Source: Ferruginibacter sp. (GTDB lineage Bacteria > Bacteroidota > Bacteroidia > Chitinophagales > Chitinophagaceae). From it: a stretch of DNA of 49,071 nucleotides. The notes beneath the pieces are model-generated. The model was not told the DNA's origin. It did no database searches and was given only the letters and a program-made list of their open reading frames with translations. Below are positions 28,669 to 37,881 of this stretch, piece by piece. The stretch lies in contig JANMAV010000024.1 of assembly GCA_031360055.1 (NCBI GenBank), forward strand, positions 1 through 49,071. Direction: 5' to 3'. Every line of letters begins with the position of its first letter. The stretch's first letter is position 1. A program made the position numbers and the translations under genes.

Positions 28669-31527
28669 ATGCAAGAAAAAAAATTATTCCTCCTTGATGC
28701 TTATGCCCTCATTTTTAGGGCTTATTATAGTTTAGTAAGCAGCCCACGTATTACCAGTAAAGGGCGAAATACCAATGCTCAATTCGGTTTTACCAATACC
28801 TTGGTAGAGTTATTAAACAACCAAAAGCCTACACATATAGCCGTATGTTTTGATACAAGTGCTACAACCGAAAGGCATACCGATTTTGCCGATTATAAAG
28901 CCAATAGGCAAGAAACGCCAGAAGATATTAGATCATCTATCCCCGATATAAAAAAAATTATACAAGGTTTTAACATACCCGTTGTAGAGCTTGATGGTTA
29001 TGAAGCTGATGATATAATTGGTGCCTTGGCAAAGCAGGCTGAAAAGGTAGGCTACGATGTTTTTATGGTTACGCCAGATAAAGATTATGGCCAATTGGTA
29101 AGCGATAAAATTAAAATTTATAAACCGGGTCGCCAAGGTGGTAGTGTAGAAATTATGGGCCCAAAAGAAGTGTGTGAAAAGTGGGATATACAACGGGTAG
29201 ACCAAGTAATAGATATTTTGGGATTAATGGGAGATGCTGTAGATAAAATACCCGGTATAAAAGGGGTAGGTGAAAAAACTGCTGCCAAACTTTTAAAAGA
29301 ATATGATACCATTGAAAATATTTTGGCTAACGCCGATAAAATTAAAGGAGCATTAGGCGAAAAAGTAAGGGCTGGTAAAGCCGATGCCATGATGAGCAAA
29401 AAATTGGCTACTATAATTTTAGATGTGCCAGTGGAGTTTCAAGAAGAAGATTATCAGCTTGACCCCATGAATAAAGAACTGCTGTTAGAAATTTTTACAC
29501 AGTTGGAATTTAAAACTATGGGGGAGAGGATTTTGGGAACTAAGAAAACGACTGACGATGAACGACAGAAGGTAGTGGGCAGTGAATACAGTAATGCTAC
29601 GGGTGCTAGTGGCAATGGGCAGCTTGATTTATTTGGCAGCCCAATAGCTACAAATTATACTAATAATACTGATAACGAAACCGCTGAAGAAACTATTATT
29701 GTAGCCGATAAAAATATAACCAATACCCCACACAATTATATTTTAGTACAAACAAATGAGGATATAAAAGCTTTAGTAACTGAGCTACAAAATCACTCCG
29801 AAATTTGTTTTGATACCGAAACTACCCACATAGATGCAAACTGTGCAGACCTTGTAGGGCTTAGCTTTGCCGTAAAACCTACTGAAGGTTGGTATGTGCC
29901 TTGCCCCGAAAATAAGGAGGACTGTATTCAACTTTTAAACCATTTTAAACCATTGTTCAACGATATTGCAAAAACATGGATTGGGCAAAATTTAAAGTAC
30001 GATTTGCTCATGCTTAAATGGTATGGCTTTGCACTAGCTGGTAATATTTTTGATACCATGCTTGCACATTATGTAACGGAGCCAGAAGGCAAACGTAACA
30101 TGGATTTATTAGCAGCTAAATATTTAGGCTACATACCCGTTAGCATAACATCGTTAATTGGTAAAAAAGGCAAAGGCCAAGGCACCATGAGAGATGTGGC
30201 TGTGCAAGATGCCAAAGAATATGCTGTAGAAGATGCCGATATTACCCTACAATTAAAACAAAATTTTTTACCACAATTAAAAATTAAAGAAGTAGAAAAA
30301 GTTTTTTACGAAGTAGAAAATCCATTAGTGAGGGTGCTTACCAATATGGAGTTTGAGGGCATACGTATAGATATGGATTTTTTAAAAGCTTACAGCAAAG
30401 AGCTAGATATAGAGGCAAAAATAGCCGAAGAAAAAGTGTATGAAACTGCTGGCGTAAGGTTTAATTTGGCCAGCCCAAAACAATTGGGAGAAGTGTTATT
30501 TGATAAAATGAAACTTGACCCTAAAGCCAAAAAAACAAAAACAGGGCAGTACGCTACCGGAGAAGATGTATTGGCAAAACTTGCCAATAACAACCCTATT
30601 TGCGAAGAAATTTTAACCTTTAGAGAACTTACCAAATTACGCAGCACTTATGTAGATGCCTTTCCTGAATTGATGAACCCACGTACCGGCAGGGTACACA
30701 CCAATTATGCACAAGCAGTAGCAGTTACGGGCAGGCTTAGCAGCACTAATCCTAATTTGCAAAATATTCCTATACGTACCACAAAAGGTAAAGAAATACG
30801 CAAAGCATTTATTCCGAGAGATGCAGATCATGTTCTGGTGTCTGCCGATTACTCACAAATAGAACTTAGGGTGGTAGCGGCTATTAGCGGAGATGAAAAT
30901 ATGTGTGCCGCTTTTAAAAATGGTAAAGATATACATACAGCCACGGCAGCAAAAGTGTTTGGCGTTGAGGAAAAAGACGTAACTAAAGAAATGCGTTATA
31001 AAGCCAAGAGTGTAAACTTTGGTATTATTTATGGGCAGGGTGCATTTGGCCTTGCTGAAAATTTAGGCATACCAAGGGCAGAGGCAAAAGAGATTATTGA
31101 CAACTATAAAAAAGAGTTTCCGGGCATACAAAAGTATATGGACGATACCATTAATTTTTGTAAAGAAAATGGATATGTGGAAACCCTGATGGGGCGTAAA
31201 CGTTGGCTAAAAGATATTACAAGTGCCAACTTCACCGTACGTGGCTTTGCCGAACGAAACGCCATAAACTCACCCATACAAGGTACCGCAGCCGATATGA
31301 TAAAGCTTGCCATGATTAAAATTAATGCAGCCCTCATAGAAGGAAATTTTAAAAGCAAAATGCTGTTACAAGTACATGATGAATTGGTGTTTGATGTATT
31401 AAAAACTGAACTTAAAACCATGGAGCCTTTAATATTAAATTGCATGAAAACTGCTTTGGTACTTCCAAACAATGTACCTGTAGAGGCAGAGTTAGGTGTG
31501 GGAGATAATTGGTTGGAGGCACATTAA
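28669..31527 (+). CDS. polA: DNA polymerase I
   Basis: 5'-3' exonuclease (LLDAYALIFRAYY, YKANR, EADD, DKD); 3'-5' exonuclease (FDTETT); polymerase motifs TGRLSS.NPNLQNIP, ADYSQIELR, KSVNFGIIYG and QVHDEL. ATG 28669 (MQEKK) preferred over TTG 28609. Confidence 0.97.
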   Translation: MQEKKLFLLDAYALIFRAYYSLVSSPRITSKGRNTNAQFGFTNTLVELLNNQKPTHIAVCFDTSATTERHTDFADYKANRQETPEDIRSSIPDIKKIIQGFNIPVVELDGYEADDIIGALAKQAEKVGYDVFMVTPDKDYGQLVSDKIKIYKPGRQGGSVEIMGPKEVCEKWDIQRVDQVIDILGLMGDAVDKIPGIKGVGEKTAAKLLKEYDTIENILANADKIKGALGEKVRAGKADAMMSKKLATIILDVPVEFQEEDYQLDPMNKELLLEIFTQLEFKTMGERILGTKKTTDDERQKVVGSEYSNATGASGNGQLDLFGSPIATNYTNNTDNETAEETIIVADKNITNTPHNYILVQTNEDIKALVTELQNHSEICFDTETTHIDANCADLVGLSFAVKPTEGWYVPCPENKEDCIQLLNHFKPLFNDIAKTWIGQNLKYDLLMLKWYGFALAGNIFDTMLAHYVTEPEGKRNMDLLAAKYLGYIPVSITSLIGKKGKGQGTMRDVAVQDAKEYAVEDADITLQLKQNFLPQLKIKEVEKVFYEVENPLVRVLTNMEFEGIRIDMDFLKAYSKELDIEAKIAEEKVYETAGVRFNLASPKQLGEVLFDKMKLDPKAKKTKTGQYATGEDVLAKLANNNPICEEILTFRELTKLRSTYVDAFPELMNPRTGRVHTNYAQAVAVTGRLSSTNPNLQNIPIRTTKGKEIRKAFIPRDADHVLVSADYSQIELRVVAAISGDENMCAAFKNGKDIHTATAAKVFGVEEKDVTKEMRYKAKSVNFGIIYGQGAFGLAENLGIPRAEAKEIIDNYKKEFPGIQKYMDDTINFCKENGYVETLMGRKRWLKDITSANFTVRGFAERNAINSPIQGTAADMIKLAMIKINAALIEGNFKSKMLLQVHDELVFDVLKTELKTMEPLILNCMKTALVLPNNVPVEAELGVGDNWLEAH

Positions 31528-31640
31528 GGTAGTATTAAGAGCGGCACGTTAAGAAAAAAGCGAACAAGTAGCAGTTGCTATTTGCATGTTTTTAAAACAA
31601 TAGCATTGCAAAAAAAGAAAGTGAAAAAAATGATTTTATA

Positions 31641-32336
31641 ATGAACCAACAAATAATTGGAGACAAACAGTCCCCCATCGGGGGATTTAGGGGGCTAATA
31701 CTCTATTGCTACGATCCCTACTGTGGTTGGTGTTTCGGCTTTAGCCCAGTAATAAAAAAAATTGCTGAAACCTATAAAAACATATTGCCAATAGATGTGT
31801 TAAGCGGAGGAATGATTTTGCCTGAAAAGCCTACCCACATTAGTCTGGCAGCACCATATATTTTAAGTGCATACAAAAATGTAGAAGAAACAACGGGTAT
31901 AAAATTTGGCGATGATTATCTATGGCATCTCAATAACCCTGATGATACTGACTGGTATCCTAACTCCGAAAAACCATCCATTGCCATGTGCATTTTTAAA
32001 GAGTTTTATCCTGAAAGGGCTGTGGAATTTGCAACCGATTTACAATATGCCCTGCATGTTGAAGGCCGAGATTTAACAGACAATGAAACCTACCGCCACT
32101 TGCTAGAAAAGTATAGCATACAACCAGAAATTTTTTACGACAAGTTACAAAGTGAAGAGTATAAAGAAATGGCTTACTATGAATTTTCTTTAATGAAACA
32201 ATTGCAAGTAACAGGTTACCCCTGTGTGTTTATACAAACTAGCGATACAAAATTTAATATGGTAGCAAGGGGTTATACCGATTATGAAACGCTGAAAAGT
32301 AGGATAATTGATGTGTTAAAAATAGAAAACTCCTAA
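31641..32336 (+). CDS. DsbA-family thioredoxin-fold protein
   Basis: YDPYCGWCFGF (CxxC), SGGM and cis-Pro loop VTGYP. Confidence 0.85.
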   Translation: MNQQIIGDKQSPIGGFRGLILYCYDPYCGWCFGFSPVIKKIAETYKNILPIDVLSGGMILPEKPTHISLAAPYILSAYKNVEETTGIKFGDDYLWHLNNPDDTDWYPNSEKPSIAMCIFKEFYPERAVEFATDLQYALHVEGRDLTDNETYRHLLEKYSIQPEIFYDKLQSEEYKEMAYYEFSLMKQLQVTGYPCVFIQTSDTKFNMVARGYTDYETLKSRIIDVLKIENS

Positions 32337-32340
32337 ACCT

Positions 32341-32811
32341 CTACTCCTCAACAACAGGCAGCTTTCTATTAAACCCTTCCTCAAGCGATATAAAAGTTTC
32401 AGTACGTTCTATACCCTTTATTTTTTGTAAATCATCATGTAGCACTCTTCTAAGTTGGGCAATATCTTTACAAACAATTTCTATAAACATGCTATAGTTA
32501 CCCGTAATATAATTTAGCCGTACAATTTCTTTTATCTTTTTCAACTCTTTTGCCACCGTATCGTATAACGAACTTTTTTCTAAATAAATACCTACAAAAG
32601 CCATACAATCATACCCAAGTAATTTGCTATTAATAATCATTTGGGTGCCGGTAATTATTTTTAACTCTTGCAGTTTTTTTATACGTACATGTATAGTACC
32701 TGCACTTACAAATAACTGTTGGCCAAGCTGAGCGTACGATACCTCAGCATTGTTCATCATGGCATTAATTATCTGCTTGTCTAATTTGTCAATAGTTAAA
32801 GGAGTAGCCAT
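32341..32811 (-). CDS. Lrp/AsnC-family transcriptional regulator (AsnC-like)
   Basis: IDKLDKQII, SYAQL, VSAGTIHVRIKKL HTH; FVGIYLEKS, Y.TG.YS.F and IERTETFISL closely follow the AsnC pattern. Confidence 0.9.
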   Translation of the reverse strand: MATPLTIDKLDKQIINAMMNNAEVSYAQLGQQLFVSAGTIHVRIKKLQELKIITGTQMIINSKLLGYDCMAFVGIYLEKSSLYDTVAKELKKIKEIVRLNYITGNYSMFIEIVCKDIAQLRRVLHDDLQKIKGIERTETFISLEEGFNRKLPVVEE

Positions 32812-32887
32812 TTTAGTATCAGTTTTTAAATAGTATTTAATAAAAGTACAAAATATATGAATATTATCTATATTTTATAAATTAATG

Positions 32888-32902
32888 TTGAAAATTATTC
32901 AG
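32888..32902. promoter_or_regulatory. Candidate Lrp/AsnC operator TTGAAAATTATTCAG
   Basis: TGAA-N5-TTCA dyad; 13/15 match by eye to the E. coli Lrp consensus YAGHAWATTWTDCTR; lies between the asnC-like gene and the RNA gene. Confidence 0.45.
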
Positions 32903-32919
32903 CTTATGAATATATTTTC

Positions 32920-32927
32920 TATCTTTG
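32920..32927 (+). promoter_or_regulatory. -7 promoter element (TATCTTTG) for the tRNA-like RNA
   Basis: Exact TAnnTTTG 34 nt upstream of the acceptor stem; leader contains hairpin GTTACC-AAAG-GGTAAC (32941-32956). Confidence 0.65.
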
Positions 32928-32961
32928 ATTTATCAAACAGGTTACCAAAGGGTAACAATAC

Positions 32962-33133
32962 TGTGGGGTGATGAAATTTTTGGCAGACATGCCCCCTTGT
33001 CTCGGGGGTGAGGATAACAGGACAAACGAAATATAGAGCCATCCCTACACTTGTGTAGGGATGACCGGGGTCGACCACCGAACTTTGTATTTTAGCTAAC
33101 TGCCTCGTGGAGGTTCGACCCCTTCCCCTACAG
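32962..33133 (+). ncRNA. Non-canonical tRNA-like RNA: GUC (Asp) anticodon, tRNA-Leu-type D arm, 100-nt variable-arm insertion
   Basis: Acceptor TGTGGGG/CCCTACA; D arm ATG-AAATTTTTGGCAGA-CAT; anticodon stem CCCCC/GGGGG with loop TTGTCTC; T arm GGAGG-TTCGACC-CCTTC; discriminator G; CCA not encoded. Confidence 0.85.
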
Positions 33134-33308
33134 CATACATTTTTTTAAAGCCCTCGTTACATTAACGGGGGCTTTGTATTGAGCTAACAGCCCCGTACCT
33201 TGGTTACGGGATCGACCCCTTCCCCTACAGCATACATTTTTTTAAAGTCCTCGTTACATTAACGGGGGCTTTGTATTGAGCTAACAGCCCCGTACCATAG
33301 TTACGGGG
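33115..33308 (+). repeat. 97-bp-period tandem duplication including the 3' end of the tRNA-like RNA
   Basis: TCGACCCCTTCCCCTACAGCATACATTTTTTTAAAG(C/T)CCTCGTTACATTAACGGGGGCTTTGTATTGAGCTAACAGCCCCGTACC begins at both 33115 and 33212. Confidence 0.92.
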
Positions 33309-33327
33309 CTCTATAGCATATATTTTT

Positions 33328-33361
33328 AAAGCTCAACTCTTAAAAAGTTGGGCTTTTTTTT
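33328..33361 (+). terminator. Intrinsic terminator closing the tRNA-like transcript
   Basis: AAAGCTCAACT-CTTAAAA-AGTTGGGCTTT followed by a T-run. Confidence 0.75.
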
Positions 33362-33490
33362 ATGTGTAACCTGCCTCTAATTCATCATTGTTATAACTAT
33401 TAATTAAAAAAACTAAACATCTTTTTAGTTTGATACGAAGAATAGATCCAAAAAATTTATCCGCTGTAAAAATACTTGCTTGGTAAATGG

Positions 33491-33498
33491 TACATTTG
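33491..33498 (+). promoter_or_regulatory. -7 promoter element (TACATTTG) of the LytTR operon
   Basis: TAnnTTTG 30 nt before ATG 33529. Confidence 0.55.
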
Positions 33499-33528
33499 TT
33501 TATACCACAAGTATAAGCAGTATCTATA

Positions 33529-34239
33529 ATGACAAACAGTAAACCCCTTACCTGTATTTTAATTGATGATAACCCAGTAGCATTACTTATGCTAAAGCAG
33601 CAAATAATGCAGTTGCCTAGCCTTCAAATTTTGGGTGAATTTAATACAGCCATACAAGCAAGTAACTTTTTAAAAAGTAACGAAATAGATCTATTGTTTT
33701 TAGATATTGAAATGCCCGAAATGTCAGGTTTTGAATTGCTAAAATCATTACAGCCGGCACCTATTGCCATTTTAACATCGGCCAGCAAAGCCTATGTAGA
33801 AGAGGCCTATGAAATGAATGTAGCTGATTATTTAATTAAACCTGTACAACTATCAAGGCTCATGATGGCCATAAACAGAGCTACGGAATTGGTAAATAAA
33901 AAAGATGCTGTGTTTAATAAAGTAGAAGATGACCATGTGTTTATAAAAGAAAATAAAACACTCAGAAAACTGTTACTAAAAGATATGTATTGGTTAGAGG
34001 CAAAGGGCGACTATGTAAAAATTTATTTGGCTGAAAAATATCACATCATCCACTCTACCCTTAAACAACTAGAAGAAAAATTACCCTCATCTAAATTTAT
34101 ACGCATACACAGAAGCTACATAATAGCCACCGATAAAATTGAATATATTGAAGATAATGTGGTATATGTAAACAATACACCCATCCCAATATCAGAAGCT
34201 TTAAAACCAGAACTCATAAAAAAACTACATTTTTTATAG
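33529..34239 (+). CDS. LytTR-family response regulator
   Basis: Receiver domain (IDDN, FLDIEMP, DYLIKP) plus LytTR domain (LEAKGDYV, FIRIHRSYII). Confidence 0.93.
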   Translation: MTNSKPLTCILIDDNPVALLMLKQQIMQLPSLQILGEFNTAIQASNFLKSNEIDLLFLDIEMPEMSGFELLKSLQPAPIAILTSASKAYVEEAYEMNVADYLIKPVQLSRLMMAINRATELVNKKDAVFNKVEDDHVFIKENKTLRKLLLKDMYWLEAKGDYVKIYLAEKYHIIHSTLKQLEEKLPSSKFIRIHRSYIIATDKIEYIEDNVVYVNNTPIPISEALKPELIKKLHFL

Positions 34240-34283
34240 GTCTAAATTATAAACAAAAATAGCCCCCAACCCCTTTATATATA

Positions 34284-36497
34284 TTGAAAAAACCAACCTT
34301 TTTCTTTGTTTGGATTATGATATTAGCCATAGGTATTATGGCTGTTATTACTGTTACACAAGTAATAACCAATACATCGCAAACGGCATTAGAAAACGGT
34401 AACAAACAAGCTGCAAATACTTTTACTACAAACAATAAGTTAGAGGAATTGGTAAACTATTCTCTATTATTAGAGAAAAGAATTGTAAGCCTAAAATTTA
34501 AACCAACACTAAACCAAGCAGCTGTAAATAATATTAAAGATTCGTTAACCAGCTTGGGTTACAATATCACCATTTTACAAAAAACCTGGAACGATAGCGG
34601 CAGCATTAGTGGCCTAAACAAAATTGCCGGTTTAATAAATACTCAAGTAAACGAATCATTTAAAATTTTGGCAGCCTATGATAATAGCACCAATAAAATT
34701 TTGGCAGCACCTACCATTTCAGATAGTTTACAATCTTTACATGTAGGAGATAGCATTTACAACAACGCTATTGAGTTTCAAAAGCAATTAGAAAAACTGT
34801 TAAGAGATAATTTACTTCAAAATAATGTGGCTACTACCCAACTAGCCACACTAAATTTTACCTTGGCCATTGTATCGTTAATAGCGGTATTAATATTGGT
34901 AATTATAATTATAAGACGCCAAAAAAAACAATTGCTACTTATTAATGATTTGGATAAAGCCAAAACATTAGCCCAAAAAAATAGCGAAATTAAAGACAGA
35001 TTTTTGGCTAACATGAGCCACGAAATTAGAACACCATTGAATGCATTAAAAGGCTTTAGCAAATTGCTATTGGGCACCACACTTAATACAGAGCAATTAA
35101 AATATACAAACATAATAGAAACTAGTAGCAACAATTTATTGTTAATTGTAAACGATATTTTAGACCTATCTAAAATTGAAGCAGATAATGTAACCATTAG
35201 CCAAGCCGTGTTTGATGTACATACAGAGGTAACTGAACTGGCCATTCTTTTTGAGCCCTTAGCAAAAGAAAAAAATATTGAGCTTACATGCTCAGTTCAG
35301 CAAAACATTAGCCACACCTTAAGTGGCGATGCTATTAGGCTAAAACAAATTTTAGTAAACCTAGTTGGTAACGCCATTAAATTTACTGATGCAGGCAAGG
35401 TTTCCATAGAGGTAACTTTGTTAGAAAATACAGCAGGTACACAGTGGCTACAATGTACAGTAACTGATACTGGCATTGGTATACCTGCACTACAACTCTA
35501 TAGCATATTTGAAAGGTTTGAACAAGTAGATACATCTTTTTCTAGAAAACAAGGAGGTACAGGTTTGGGCTTAGCTATTGTAAAAAAAATTACTGCACTT
35601 ATGGGTGGTAATATTACGGTAGAGAGTGTGCCGGGAAAGGGTTCTGCATTTACCATAAACCTACCCTTTGTTGTAGTAGCAAATAAAAGCTCAGCGTCAA
35701 TAAAAAACAATGTTGATTGTATAAATTATACCAATAGCTTTTTGCAAAAAACAATACTATTGGTTGAAGATAATGCAATGAACCAAATGCTATTAGAAAG
35801 TATGCTTACCCCAACTGGAGCAACGTTACTTTTTGCAAATAATGGAGCAGAAGCAATACAATTTTGTGATACAGCATTGCCAGATGTATTGTTGATGGAT
35901 GTGCAAATGCCTGTAATGGATGGTATTGAAGCCACAAAAATGCTTAGGAAAAAATTTGGCAACTCCATTCCTATTGTAGCTATGACGGCACATGTACTAC
36001 CAAACGAAAAACAGAAATGCTTAGATGCTGGTATGAATTATTATATTTCAAAACCTATTGATCAAGCTATACTGCTACAACACATTGCTCAAATTTGTGG
36101 CATAGGGCCAACAAAAAAAGAAACTACTGCAATAAATAATACTGCAATAAATAAATTGGGCTTATCCAATGTATATAAACTGTGTAATAATAACGAAGCC
36201 GCTGTAAAACAAATTTTAACCCAGCTCTGTGTACAAATGCCTACTGAAATACAAGCTTTGCAACAAGCCGTGCAAGAGAAAAATATATCCCAACTCCAAA
36301 AAATAGTACACAACTTTACCTCTACTGTATCACCATTAAATGATGATGTACCATCCGTTGTAGCACTGCAAGGTTTCAGCAATACCATACATCAACAAAT
36401 AATTGAATGGCCATTGGTACAAACTGAAACCAATAAATTAGTACTTCTTTTACAACATTGCAATACTGCAGTACATAATTTCGTTAATGAAACATAG
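34284..36497 (+). CDS. Hybrid sensor histidine kinase (2 TM, HisKA, HATPase, receiver, Hpt-like tail)
   Basis: FLANMSHEIRTPLN, NLVGNAIKFT, DTGIGI, GTGLGL, VEDN and LMDVQMP; helical tail with IVHNFTS; TTG start. Confidence 0.92.
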   Translation: MKKPTFFFVWIMILAIGIMAVITVTQVITNTSQTALENGNKQAANTFTTNNKLEELVNYSLLLEKRIVSLKFKPTLNQAAVNNIKDSLTSLGYNITILQKTWNDSGSISGLNKIAGLINTQVNESFKILAAYDNSTNKILAAPTISDSLQSLHVGDSIYNNAIEFQKQLEKLLRDNLLQNNVATTQLATLNFTLAIVSLIAVLILVIIIIRRQKKQLLLINDLDKAKTLAQKNSEIKDRFLANMSHEIRTPLNALKGFSKLLLGTTLNTEQLKYTNIIETSSNNLLLIVNDILDLSKIEADNVTISQAVFDVHTEVTELAILFEPLAKEKNIELTCSVQQNISHTLSGDAIRLKQILVNLVGNAIKFTDAGKVSIEVTLLENTAGTQWLQCTVTDTGIGIPALQLYSIFERFEQVDTSFSRKQGGTGLGLAIVKKITALMGGNITVESVPGKGSAFTINLPFVVVANKSSASIKNNVDCINYTNSFLQKTILLVEDNAMNQMLLESMLTPTGATLLFANNGAEAIQFCDTALPDVLLMDVQMPVMDGIEATKMLRKKFGNSIPIVAMTAHVLPNEKQKCLDAGMNYYISKPIDQAILLQHIAQICGIGPTKKETTAINNTAINKLGLSNVYKLCNNNEAAVKQILTQLCVQMPTEIQALQQAVQEKNISQLQKIVHNFTSTVSPLNDDVPSVVALQGFSNTIHQQIIEWPLVQTETNKLVLLLQHCNTAVHNFVNET

Positions 36498-36499
36498 TA

Positions 36500-36964
36500 A
36501 TGTCAAAAAATACTAACCATATAGCAAAAACCCAACTTGCCAACCTGCCATTTATTAAATATGTAAGGGGGGTATATTTTATTATTATATCTACAGCAGT
36601 TATTTGCTTGGCAATAATTTTTAAATCGGGATTTGATAAAGTAAATTTTAGTAAAGCCATGTTTGGGTCCACAAGGTTAGTAGAAGTTGCAGATTCTACC
36701 CAAATTGATAAACTACTACTAAACAAAAACGATATTAATTTTAACGATAAAAAATCGTTTGTGCTTAGTGCTTTATATTTTGTAGATGATACTACCGCAA
36801 CAAATACTAAAATCAATAACAGTACAAACTATTTAACCAATGCCGCCAACAGGCAAAAACTGTATAACTTAATTATACAAAAAAAGCTACAACAAAATGC
36901 TGTAAAGCAACCTGCACAAACCAACAATGATGATGGCTTTAGTATAAAACCAATACCTCAATAA
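36500..36964 (+). CDS. Hypothetical single-pass membrane protein
   Basis: Starts 2 nt after the kinase stop; one hydrophobic segment near the N-terminus; no recognised domain. Confidence 0.65.
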   Translation: MSKNTNHIAKTQLANLPFIKYVRGVYFIIISTAVICLAIIFKSGFDKVNFSKAMFGSTRLVEVADSTQIDKLLLNKNDINFNDKKSFVLSALYFVDDTTATNTKINNSTNYLTNAANRQKLYNLIIQKKLQQNAVKQPAQTNNDDGFSIKPIPQ

Positions 36965-36978
36965 ACGTATTTTGTGCA

Positions 36979-37881
36979 ATGAAAATTAATACTATTTTAA
37001 TAATAATTTTTTACTTGGTTGCCCTAAGCTCTTGCATGGCTAAAAAGCTTACACAATCTACCAAAAGGGTGCAGGCCATAAAAGAAATTAATAAAGCATC
37101 AGCAAAAAAAATTGACAGTATAGCTACTGTGGAGCAAAAAAAGTTTAAAGAAGGTACGGTAGATTCTACCTTAAGCAGCCTATTCAGAAAAAAAATACAA
37201 GCACTACAAAAAGAAACAGACTCTTTGCTGCAACAAACCAAGCAGTTGGAAGAGCTATTGGGCAATAAAAAACTATTTAAAGAACAGTACGAAACGGTAG
37301 TGCTACCTAAGTTGCAATTATTGGAGGAGTACAAAACTGCTAACAATAGGCGTATGAAAGTACTGCTTATGTTAGAAGCTGGCTTAAACGTTGCCAACTT
37401 TAATTTGTTTGATTTAGCTGCCTTTTACGGCCCCGGCAAATATGTTATTCCAAAAGATAAAGAAGAGATTGCAGCTAAATCCTTCGCTCCTATGTTGGAC
37501 TCAATCATAAGTTTTTCCAATAAATACAGCAACATTCCCCGTACCGCAACCTTGGTAATTTTAGGCTTTGCAGATGGGCAAAGGTTTAATAACGATAATG
37601 TAAACTACGAAATAATAAAGCAAGAGTCAGGCAAAACAAACCCTACAAATGCAGATCTTAACGCTACTTTATCGCAACTTAGAGCACAGGAGCTAATAAA
37701 TGTACTTACCGTAAAATTTTTAAATAGAACCCCACAGATAAATGGCTTTGAGCTTTTTAAAATTGAATACTTAGGTAAAGGCCGTGGGGAGCAGCTACCC
37801 TTACCCACCATTAAAGATTATAAAATTGAAGATGCCAGGCGCCGTATAGTGCTCTGTTATTGGGCCGTTTTGCCCGATTAG
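36979..37881 (+). CDS. Lipoprotein with coiled coil and degenerate OmpA/MotB-like C-terminal domain
   Basis: Lipobox LSSC; ILGFADG, LNATLSQLRA, GRGEQLP and RRIVL resemble OmpA_C motifs. Confidence 0.7.
   Translation: MKINTILIIIFYLVALSSCMAKKLTQSTKRVQAIKEINKASAKKIDSIATVEQKKFKEGTVDSTLSSLFRKKIQALQKETDSLLQQTKQLEELLGNKKLFKEQYETVVLPKLQLLEEYKTANNRRMKVLLMLEAGLNVANFNLFDLAAFYGPGKYVIPKDKEEIAAKSFAPMLDSIISFSNKYSNIPRTATLVILGFADGQRFNNDNVNYEIIKQESGKTNPTNADLNATLSQLRAQELINVLTVKFLNRTPQINGFELFKIEYLGKGRGEQLPLPTIKDYKIEDARRRIVLCYWAVLPD

Follow-up and report, generated by a model that had tools for sequence, protein, structure and literature searches.

A conserved tRNA-like RNA gene of Bacteroidota and their phages, divergent from asnC and predicted to serve as an asparagine carrier

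A stretch of 49,071 nt from Ferruginibacter sp. (contig JANMAV010000024.1), here termed the window, raises the question of what purpose is served by an RNA that combines a complete cloverleaf and the anticodon GUC with a variable arm of 100 nt, in a genome that also encodes a normal tRNA-Asp. The initial annotation, which was made from the sequence alone, had described this cloverleaf in detail, and all of its coordinates hold on re-check of the window sequence (Table 1). The genome contains a single copy of the RNA in addition to normal tRNA-Asp, tRNA-Asn and tmRNA genes (the latter on contig C263). As its unannotated status had implied, the gene escapes existing tools: ARAGORN reports no gene in the window, thereby missing the RNA, and an Rfam scan of positions 31500-34500 gives only chance-level hits, with nothing at or near a gathering score. 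Likewise, with Rfam 15 the RNA of eight homologous loci matches no family and is missed by RF00005, too. The minimum-energy fold of the single sequence is not the cloverleaf (-62.9 versus -49.9 kcal/mol for the comparative fold), and the cloverleaf thus rests on covariation. An alternative fold with an 8-bp acceptor and a 5-bp T stem, proposed on account of an additional C(-1):G73 pair, is unsupported because C(-1) is kept in only 16 of 51 phage copies and 4 of 25 copies from the genus. Regarding the terminator that had been claimed, the hairpin at 33147-33175 is absent from the calls of the terminator scan, which placed one at 33328-33356. The region further downstream (33529-37881) comprises a LytTR-type response regulator, a hybrid histidine kinase and two uncharacterised genes and is not conserved beside the RNA.

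Table 1. Features of the RNA gene and its surroundings in the window
Feature	Position	Strand	Remarks
asnC-like Lrp/AsnC regulator	32341..32811	-	points away from the RNA; 150 bp between U1 and the start codon
AT-rich near-palindrome	32888..32902	.	18-32 bp upstream of the promoter motif; from column frequencies of aligned upstream regions
Bacteroidota-type -7 promoter motif TAnnTTTG	32920..32927	+	
Hairpin in predicted 5' leader	32941..32956	+	from sequence; listed inverted repeat
tRNA-like RNA gene, U1 to G73	32962..33133	+	C74 encoded at 33134; no encoded CCA
Acceptor 5' strand with U1 and G2-C71	32962..32968	+	U1 pairs with A72 at 33132
Acceptor stem	32962-68/33126-32	+	7 bp, one G-U pair
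D stem	32971-73/32988-90	+	3 bp; A15 = 32976, U48 = 33108
Anticodon arm	32992..33008	+	stem 32992-96/33004-08; loop UU-GUC-UC, GUC 32999-33001
Structured variable domain	33009..33108	+	100 nt; P1, P1b and P2 carry compensatory changes
P1	33010-13/33103-06	+	4 bp; 5' bulge between P1 and P1b
P1b	33018-20/33100-02	+	3 bp
A-rich internal loop	33021-26/33096-99	+	motifs in 107 and 101 of 109 copies
P2	33028-35/33086-93	+	
P3, variable hairpin	33040..33063	+	palindromic repeat in the window copy; absent from phage copies
P4, GG-GG-UNGA-CC-A-CC hairpin with bulged A	33067..33079	+	optional; 72/109 parsed copies
T arm	33109..33125	+	G49-C65 and A51-U63; G73 at 33133
97-bp tandem duplication	33115..33308	+	gene 3' end and two downstream hairpins; passenger
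Terminator-like hairpin	33147..33175	+	inverted repeat; preceded by seven-T run 33140-33146

The RNA is far from being an isolated sequence, since relatives occur across Bacteroidota and in phages. In a DNA search, the same RNA was matched in 30 of 36 other genomes of the genus, which puts it far beyond chance. A pattern scan of GTDB returned 123 loci, with about 2,700 stretches estimated in total; 121 of the returned loci belong to Bacteroidota, mostly Cytophagales, Chitinophagales and Saprospirales, and the cultured hosts include Chitinophaga pinensis, Dyadobacter, Spirosoma, Algoriphagus and Cyclobacterium. Moreover, the exact pattern matched 84 viral contigs. The family is a widely conserved RNA gene of soil and water bacteria and of their viruses. 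In alignment A2 (47 bacterial and phage sequences) its eight helices are paired in 96.5% of cells, with both-side changes in 24 of 39 pairs; the wider, model-fitted alignment A3 (54 distinct sequences) reaches 97.9% of cells, and 28 of 39 pairs change on both sides. Controls with slid partners pair in 42-55% of cells for A2 and in 42-57% over both alignments. The 7-bp acceptor and the 5-bp T stem are paired in 100% of cells in A2 and A3, and compensatory changes are found in all eight helices, in several orders and in phages. Together with a fixed neighbour and a promoter motif (see below), this covariation supports the earlier view of a conserved, non-decaying tRNA-like RNA. Tandem full or partial gene copies are common, with two to three copies in 12 of 80 GTDB loci (L308-L387) and also in genomes G013, G014, G017, G030 and G096. 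No description of the family was found in the open-access full-text literature, to which the search was confined, and the RNA family is real and apparently uncatalogued.

The core of the variable domain consists of P1, a bulge, P1b, the A-rich loop and P2, to which P3, P4 and a 3' hairpin are added as optional elements. The 100-nt arm that had attracted attention initially does not extend to the family: among 109 parsed GTDB copies its length ranges from 25 to 135 nt, so that 100 nt is peculiar to the lineage of the window, and P3 in the window copy is a genomic repeat. The repeat, TCCCTACA-n-TGTAGGGA at 33042-33061, has 10 matches in its own genome (G000; contigs C89, C116, C204, C245, C274, C284 and also C190) and also marks the break points of partial tRNA duplicates; its presence on C190 leads ARAGORN to two false calls, tRNA-Stop(UUA) and tRNA-Arg(ACG). 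The tandem duplication at the 3' end of the gene is evident from 97 matches out of 130 at offset 97 versus 35-47 at neighbouring offsets, and similar partial duplicates lie at tRNA-Asp (C89) and tRNA-Arg (C190) of the same genome. The P4 loop was also considered as a dimer element in bacteria and was rejected as weak, N in GGU-N-GACC being G in 9 of 130 cases.

Which bases are kept was assessed in 109 parsed GTDB copies out of 142 matches to a pattern that fixed the anticodon. The acceptor pairs are U1-A72 in 108/109 and G2-C71 as well as U3-A70 in 109/109 copies, U1-A72 and G2-C71 being also present in 54/54 sequences of A3. At the 3' end G73 and C74 occur in 109/109 copies each and CCA is encoded in 14, while the T arm carries G49-C65 in 109/109 and A51-U63 in 101/109. 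Because these earlier patterns fixed the anticodon, the family was resampled with a 3'-end pattern, which itself fixes the acceptor end; it yielded 120 viral matches (47 unparsed, the remainder amounting to 53 distinct copies) and 125 metagenome matches (25 unparsed, 98 distinct copies). In these anticodon-blind samples GUC is found in 53/53 viral and 92/98 metagenome copies, the others being CUC (3), AUC (2) and UUC (1); unparsed viral copies that were printed have GUC, too, and GUU is found in none of the 151 parsed copies. C38 is kept in 51/53 viral and 97/98 metagenome copies. Hence, the AspRS identity elements GUC, C38 and G73, which had been recognized in the window copy, are present and conserved in the family. 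The bases at U33 and position 37 serve decoding. Among the anticodon-blind copies U33 is replaced in 10/53 viral and 9/98 metagenome cases, and position 37 is a purine in only 1/53 and 4/98, respectively; U37, which had been emphasized as a peculiarity, is not invariant, as C or G takes its place in 10/98 metagenome copies. In this RNA, synthetase-facing bases are kept while decoding bases drift. Several copies feature Glu anticodons (UUC or CUC: L140 of genome G190, L407, L590, L614, L623 and L633; 4/98 of the metagenome copies), which represent either a relaxed position 34 or Glu-to-Gln versions.

These bases coincide with published determinants. The Asp identity set is given as G34, U35, C36, C38 and G73, with G2-C71 as a minor element (PMC9976931), all of which the RNA shares with tRNA-Asp. 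It lacks the other traits of that family, namely G1-C72, described as important for bacterial AspRS (PMC9976931), a class I variable loop, G49-U65 with G51-C63, and detection by tRNA models. On the other hand, U1-A72 is the determinant of bacterial GatCAB, and an engineered tRNA-Asp with U1-A72 and without U20A was amidated at nearly the level of Asp-tRNA-Asn irrespective of the anticodon, a nucleotide at 20a costing about tenfold (PMC1635274). From GatCAB-substrate tRNA-Asn the RNA thus has U1-A72 and G73, and it departs in the GUU anticodon and in the absence of 20a; A20a is present in the window copy, and the tRNA-Asn of the same genome has 20a as well. Third, G49-C65 and A51-U63 bar Asp-tRNA-Asn from EF-Tu (PMC1904265). 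The tRNA-Asp of the window's own genome is opposite at all three sites (G1-C72, G49-U65 and G51-C63). Three independent published determinant sets thus come together, conserved, in one molecule.

The only recurring neighbour of the RNA in bacteria is an AsnC homologue. In the window, the best NCBIfam hit of this regulator is AsnC NF008384 (156 bits, under the cut-off of 227), and its best PDB match is E. coli AsnC 2CG4 (E 8.8e-32; next 4e-18). An AsnC homologue lies beside the RNA in 26/30 genus loci, 10/16 phylum loci and 42/67 full-length GTDB loci, and at 0/84 viral loci. In 127 of the 128 loci holding both, the two genes are divergent, with a median gap of 151 bp. The asnC-asnA locus of E. 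coli, whose AsnC is the nearest relative of the regulator with a solved structure, is likewise divergent with a gap of 151 bp, versus 150 bp in the window; it differs in that asnA's place is held by the RNA gene in Bacteroidota. AsnC of E. coli senses asparagine and activates asnA. The promoter claimed for the RNA corresponds to the motif TAnnTTTG, which we take to be the Bacteroidota -7 consensus and which occurs in 87 of 117 asnC-RNA intergenic regions versus 18 in shuffles. The AT-rich near-palindrome upstream of it constitutes a candidate AsnC site. A replacement of the RNA by asnB beside asnC was not found in the four loci recovered from ten RNA-negative genomes, and four RNA-negative genomes keep asnC with neither RNA nor asnB adjacent. 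The sole RNA copy found outside its own class among 113 genomes (L137, G179:C26:26722-26869) still has an AsnC homologue adjacent, possibly by transfer of the pair.

A further connection concerns GatCAB. The window's own genome encodes gatA, gatB, gatC, AsnRS, GlnRS and one AspRS; AsnA was not found in it, and its three AsnB-like proteins, two of them in polysaccharide loci, score 265-275 versus a housekeeping cut-off of 499. Its GatB keeps the 3-10 turn segment that reads U1-A72, and in a docking model the GatB tail lies near the tRNA variable loop (PMC2811023), so that the arm core may clamp GatCAB. A draw from the phylum included 38 genomes of the same class, of which 15 have RNA and gatB, one gatB only, 22 neither and none the RNA only; in 113 genomes of other classes, with 20 candidates scored per genome, gatB was found in 110 and the RNA once. 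In a draw of 201 genomes from the class, all 35 RNA-positive genomes are among the 153 with gatB, and the RNA occurs in 0 of 48 gatB-negative genomes, most of which were checked by pattern only. The 35 derive from 36 pattern matches, two of which (G239 and G352) are chance matches, while G248 was added by the model; among the 153 is one unpublished genome, G281, on which no other result rests.

From these 201 genomes, a panel of 80 was picked by trait and family (30 RNA-positive, 36 gatB-only and 14 gatB-negative). AsnRS is present in 80/80, and GlnRS in 14/14 gatB-negative, 2/36 gatB-only and 16/30 RNA-positive genomes. GatCAB is explained in 33 of 35 gatB-positive RNA-negative genomes because GlnRS is absent there and GatCAB is needed for Gln. 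Among the 18 panel genomes with both gatB and GlnRS, where GatCAB is not required for Gln, the RNA is present in 16; the remaining two are a 210-contig assembly (G314) and G238, which has a second, His31-type AspRS fused to GatB. This GatB-AspRS fusion, a single frame of 1,120 aa (G238:C19:17848-21120) in a family (f92) with GlnRS and without the RNA, may by analogy be a protein solution to the same problem; frames of 1,112-1,115 aa that resemble it exist in G354 and G378.

AsnA or housekeeping AsnB occurs in 0/31 RNA-positive versus 11/49 RNA-negative panel genomes (Fisher p 0.005, kinship ignored), and the changes coincide among close relatives: AsnB is present and the RNA absent in G076, G243 and G262, the first two of which lack gatB as well, and both RNA and gatB are missing from G092 and G212. 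Nevertheless, RNA and synthetases do not complement each other cleanly, since 38 of the 49 RNA-negative genomes have neither of these enzymes, nor archaeal-type AsnA; auxotrophy, AsnB of other types or a relaxed AspRS may account for these genomes. Archaeal-type AsnA was rejected as the missing route, with 0/80 panel genomes over the cut-off. On a tree of AspRS, at least 18 changes in the state of the RNA are counted; independent pairs favour the predicted over the opposite direction by 4.3 vs 0.0, 2.9 vs 0.0 and 2.0 vs 0.1, though the tree-corrected pair tests, on a panel picked by trait, are not significant (median p 0.125, 0.25 and 0.5). As for AspRS itself, His31 marks non-discriminating enzymes, its absence being no proof of discrimination. 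The residue is found in the non-discriminating enzyme of P. aeruginosa and in 0/80 main AspRS of the panel; the AspRS signature does not separate RNA-positive from RNA-negative genomes, the Gly83 loop being two residues shorter and not exactly mappable. An archaeal-type second AspRS was absent from 5/5 RNA-positive genomes tested. The single AspRS of two other bacteria with the same gene set were described as charging tRNA-Asn (PMC4206432), which keeps a relaxed AspRS in play as another supplier of Asn.

The initial annotation had not taken into account U1-A72, the EF-Tu anti-determinants, the divergent asnC or the dependence on GatCAB, which together would point to a specific metabolic role. 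We regard it as probable that the RNA is a non-decoding carrier, on which Asp loaded by a discriminating AspRS would be amidated to Asn by GatCAB. The observed starting points are the promoter motif, the divergent asnC and the covarying fold. At low Asn, AsnC would turn on the RNA gene in the manner of asnA in E. coli, and the transcript would be matured by RNase P and by addition of the CCA end, of which the gene encodes C74 only. Following published identity rules, a discriminating AspRS would charge the RNA via GUC, C38, G73 and G2-C71; subsequently, G49-C65 and A51-U63 would keep Asp-RNA off EF-Tu, while U1-A72 would permit GatCAB to turn Asp-RNA into Asn-RNA. The weakest step is the one that follows: the large arm and the odd anticodon loop would prevent Asn-RNA from entering the ribosome and so from inserting Asn at Asp codons, and hydrolysis would free the Asn, which AsnRS would then charge onto ordinary tRNA-Asn. 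Such a reusable carrier would fill the place of asparagine synthetase where AspRS cannot charge tRNA-Asn, and phage copies would top up the supply of Asn. The base at 20a, U1-A72 instead of G1-C72, the Glu anticodons among the metagenome copies, the failure to find a release factor linked to the gene, and genome G190, which has UUC copies only and yet lacks AsnA and AsnB, speak against this role. The earlier notion of a mimic not meant for the ribosome probably stands with respect to decoding, given the drift at U33 and position 37, and its unspecified purpose is replaced by the predicted role as an Asn carrier.

With somewhat less assurance, though still on the side of likelihood, the RNA may be viewed as a new class of RNA gene, i.e., a tRNA-derived metabolic cofactor that would replace asparagine synthetase from within the AsnC regulon, at asnA's place. 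By tricking discriminating AspRS and GatCAB it would give rise to free Asn, its extra domain would either keep it off the ribosome or release the product, and phages would carry it as an auxiliary metabolic gene that consists of RNA only, frequently equipped with a dimer loop that pairs with itself.

The linkage of the RNA to a regulator and to no enzyme would also suit a regulatory decoy or sensor, that is, an AsnC-controlled RNA which binds or titrates AspRS or GatCAB, or reports the Asp/Asn status by its charging state, with no net Asn synthesis. A large structured arm is suited to protein binding, and the strict dependence on gatB is as compatible with binding as with turnover. This explanation is nonetheless unlikely, as it accounts neither for the lack of co-occurrence with AsnA or housekeeping AsnB nor for the EF-Tu anti-determinants and the GatCAB kept beside GlnRS and AsnRS (16/18), and as the tandem extra copies fit a dosage-limited carrier.

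Rather improbable is a donor of Asn or Asp for non-ribosomal transfer in cell envelope, lipid or protein modification, in which the Asn made by GatCAB would not be released free. No transferase gene recurs beside the RNA in 132 bacterial or 80 viral loci, and the exclusion with AsnA/AsnB would not be expected of a donor, although phage carriage and the failure to find a release factor linked to the RNA gene would accord with it. A precedent for EF-Tu-evading donors exists in the non-proteinogenic tRNA-Gly of Staphylococcus aureus, described as a dedicated tRNA that escapes EF-Tu via 49-65 and 51-63, as the RNA would (PMC9976931, PMC1904265); it differs in being of normal size, in giving Gly to the cell wall and in undergoing no amino-acid conversion.

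That the RNA is an unusual decoding tRNA for GAC/GAU, inserting Asp or, once amidated, Asn (conditional mistranslation), is very unlikely in view of the normal tRNA-Asp in the genome, the frequent loss of U33, a mostly pyrimidine position 37, arms that reach 135-182 nt and the D-loop hairpins of many phage copies. Such a function would explain the intact cloverleaf, the short-arm forms that ARAGORN calls tRNA-Asp and the proximity of viral copies to tRNA genes, and Asn-tRNA-Asn with the same T-stem pairs does bind EF-Tu according to PMC1904265. Finally, decay of a tRNA-Leu or tRNA-Asp into which a repeat or an intron has been inserted is scarcely credible and is refuted by covariation and distribution, for despite the repeat that forms P3 and the duplicated 3' end, all eight helices, three of them in the arm, carry compensatory changes, neighbour and promoter motif are fixed, and the insert sits in the variable arm without intron-like conservation of length.

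Compared with known systems, the predicted carrier is closest in chemistry and enzymes to the indirect Asn pathway of non-discriminating AspRS, tRNA-Asn and GatCAB, with which it has U1-A72 and the EF-Tu anti-determinants in common (PMC1635274, PMC4206432, PMC9976931). GatCAB is encoded in the window's own genome and gatB in 35/35 RNA-positive genomes, and the gene set of the RNA hosts, i.e., AsnRS, GlnRS and GatCAB without AsnA/B, has been noted for some Bacteroidetes (PMC4206432). In contrast to that pathway, the RNA has a gene to itself and an Asp anticodon, which would dispense with a relaxed AspRS. The large structured arm and a dedicated regulator are further differences, and the product would be unusable for decoding and would have to release Asn. 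The proposed tRNA-Leu-type body with Asp elements was borne out, as the geometry of D arm and variable arm matches the tRNA-Leu genes of the same genome. With the class II tRNA-Leu of Bacteroidota, its likely ancestor, the RNA shares the 3-bp D stem, A15:U48, and an arm flanked by one unpaired base on its 5' side and two on its 3' side; the family models give their next-best scores, 50-63 bits, to tRNA-Leu genes. The RNA differs in U1-A72, GUC instead of a Leu anticodon, the conserved internal loop of its 25-135-nt arm, and G73 (109/109) instead of the A73 of its own genome's tRNA-Leu genes, which argues against charging by LeuRS. Like the RNA, allo-tRNAs and selC* tRNAs are long-armed and non-canonical, occur in bacteria and phages and, in the case of allo-tRNAs, commonly have GUC; their acceptor/T stems are 8/4 or 9/3 (PMC5389517). 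The main text of that paper, to which the search was confined, contains neither 'Bacteroid' nor 'GatCAB'. An allo-tRNA identity was rejected on the grounds of the 7-bp acceptor, the 5-bp T stem and the unconserved C(-1), and tmRNA, a single-copy RNA marked by G3-U70, A73 and a tag reading frame, on those of U3-A70 and G73 and of the normal tmRNA in the genome. The family is not a member of the tRNA-Asp, tRNA-Asn, tRNA-Leu, allo-tRNA or tmRNA families.

If the proposed role is true, a dedicated non-coding RNA of a new type, overlooked by tRNA finders and Rfam, is what a widespread bacterial lineage uses to make a standard amino acid, and this RNA would be the natural counterpart of the chimeric tRNA built in PMC1635274. 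The role would explain why many Chitinophagales, Saprospirales and Cytophagales with AsnRS and GlnRS and without AsnA/AsnB keep GatCAB, a gene set ascribed to a relaxed AspRS (PMC4206432), and would change predictions of asparagine auxotrophy for RNA-bearing genomes. If the mechanism fails, there is still an uncatalogued conserved RNA family, nearest to a non-proteinogenic tRNA.

Of 80 viral loci, 43 lie within 4 kb of at least one tRNA gene and 27 of at least three. No enzyme partner recurs among the 13 recurrent neighbours scanned; these are terminase, exonuclease, PhoH, thymidylate synthase and ferredoxin, or have no match. A search of the INPHARED phages with one phage copy gave no match. 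Many phage copies carry hairpin insertions in the D loop (L031-L114, L431-L550). In addition, perfect palindromes of at least 6 nt lie 3' of P4 in 57 of 67 distinct phage linkers versus 10.9 in shuffles, their sequences being variable, and in 7 of 71 bacterial linkers versus 12.0, a contrast suggestive of dimers specific to phages. Short-arm phage forms of 90 nt number three, and the two that were run through ARAGORN are called tRNA-Asp by it. The short-arm members with this call measure about 90-97 nt (L038:2984-3074, L042:500-590 and L402:12-108); database tRNA-Asp entries of this type may be misannotated. An 82-nt class II tRNA-like gene with U1-A72, G73 and the loop CU-AUC-UC (L275, G286:C23:55334-55415, minus strand), in a genome that has AsnA, is possibly a reduced remnant of the family.
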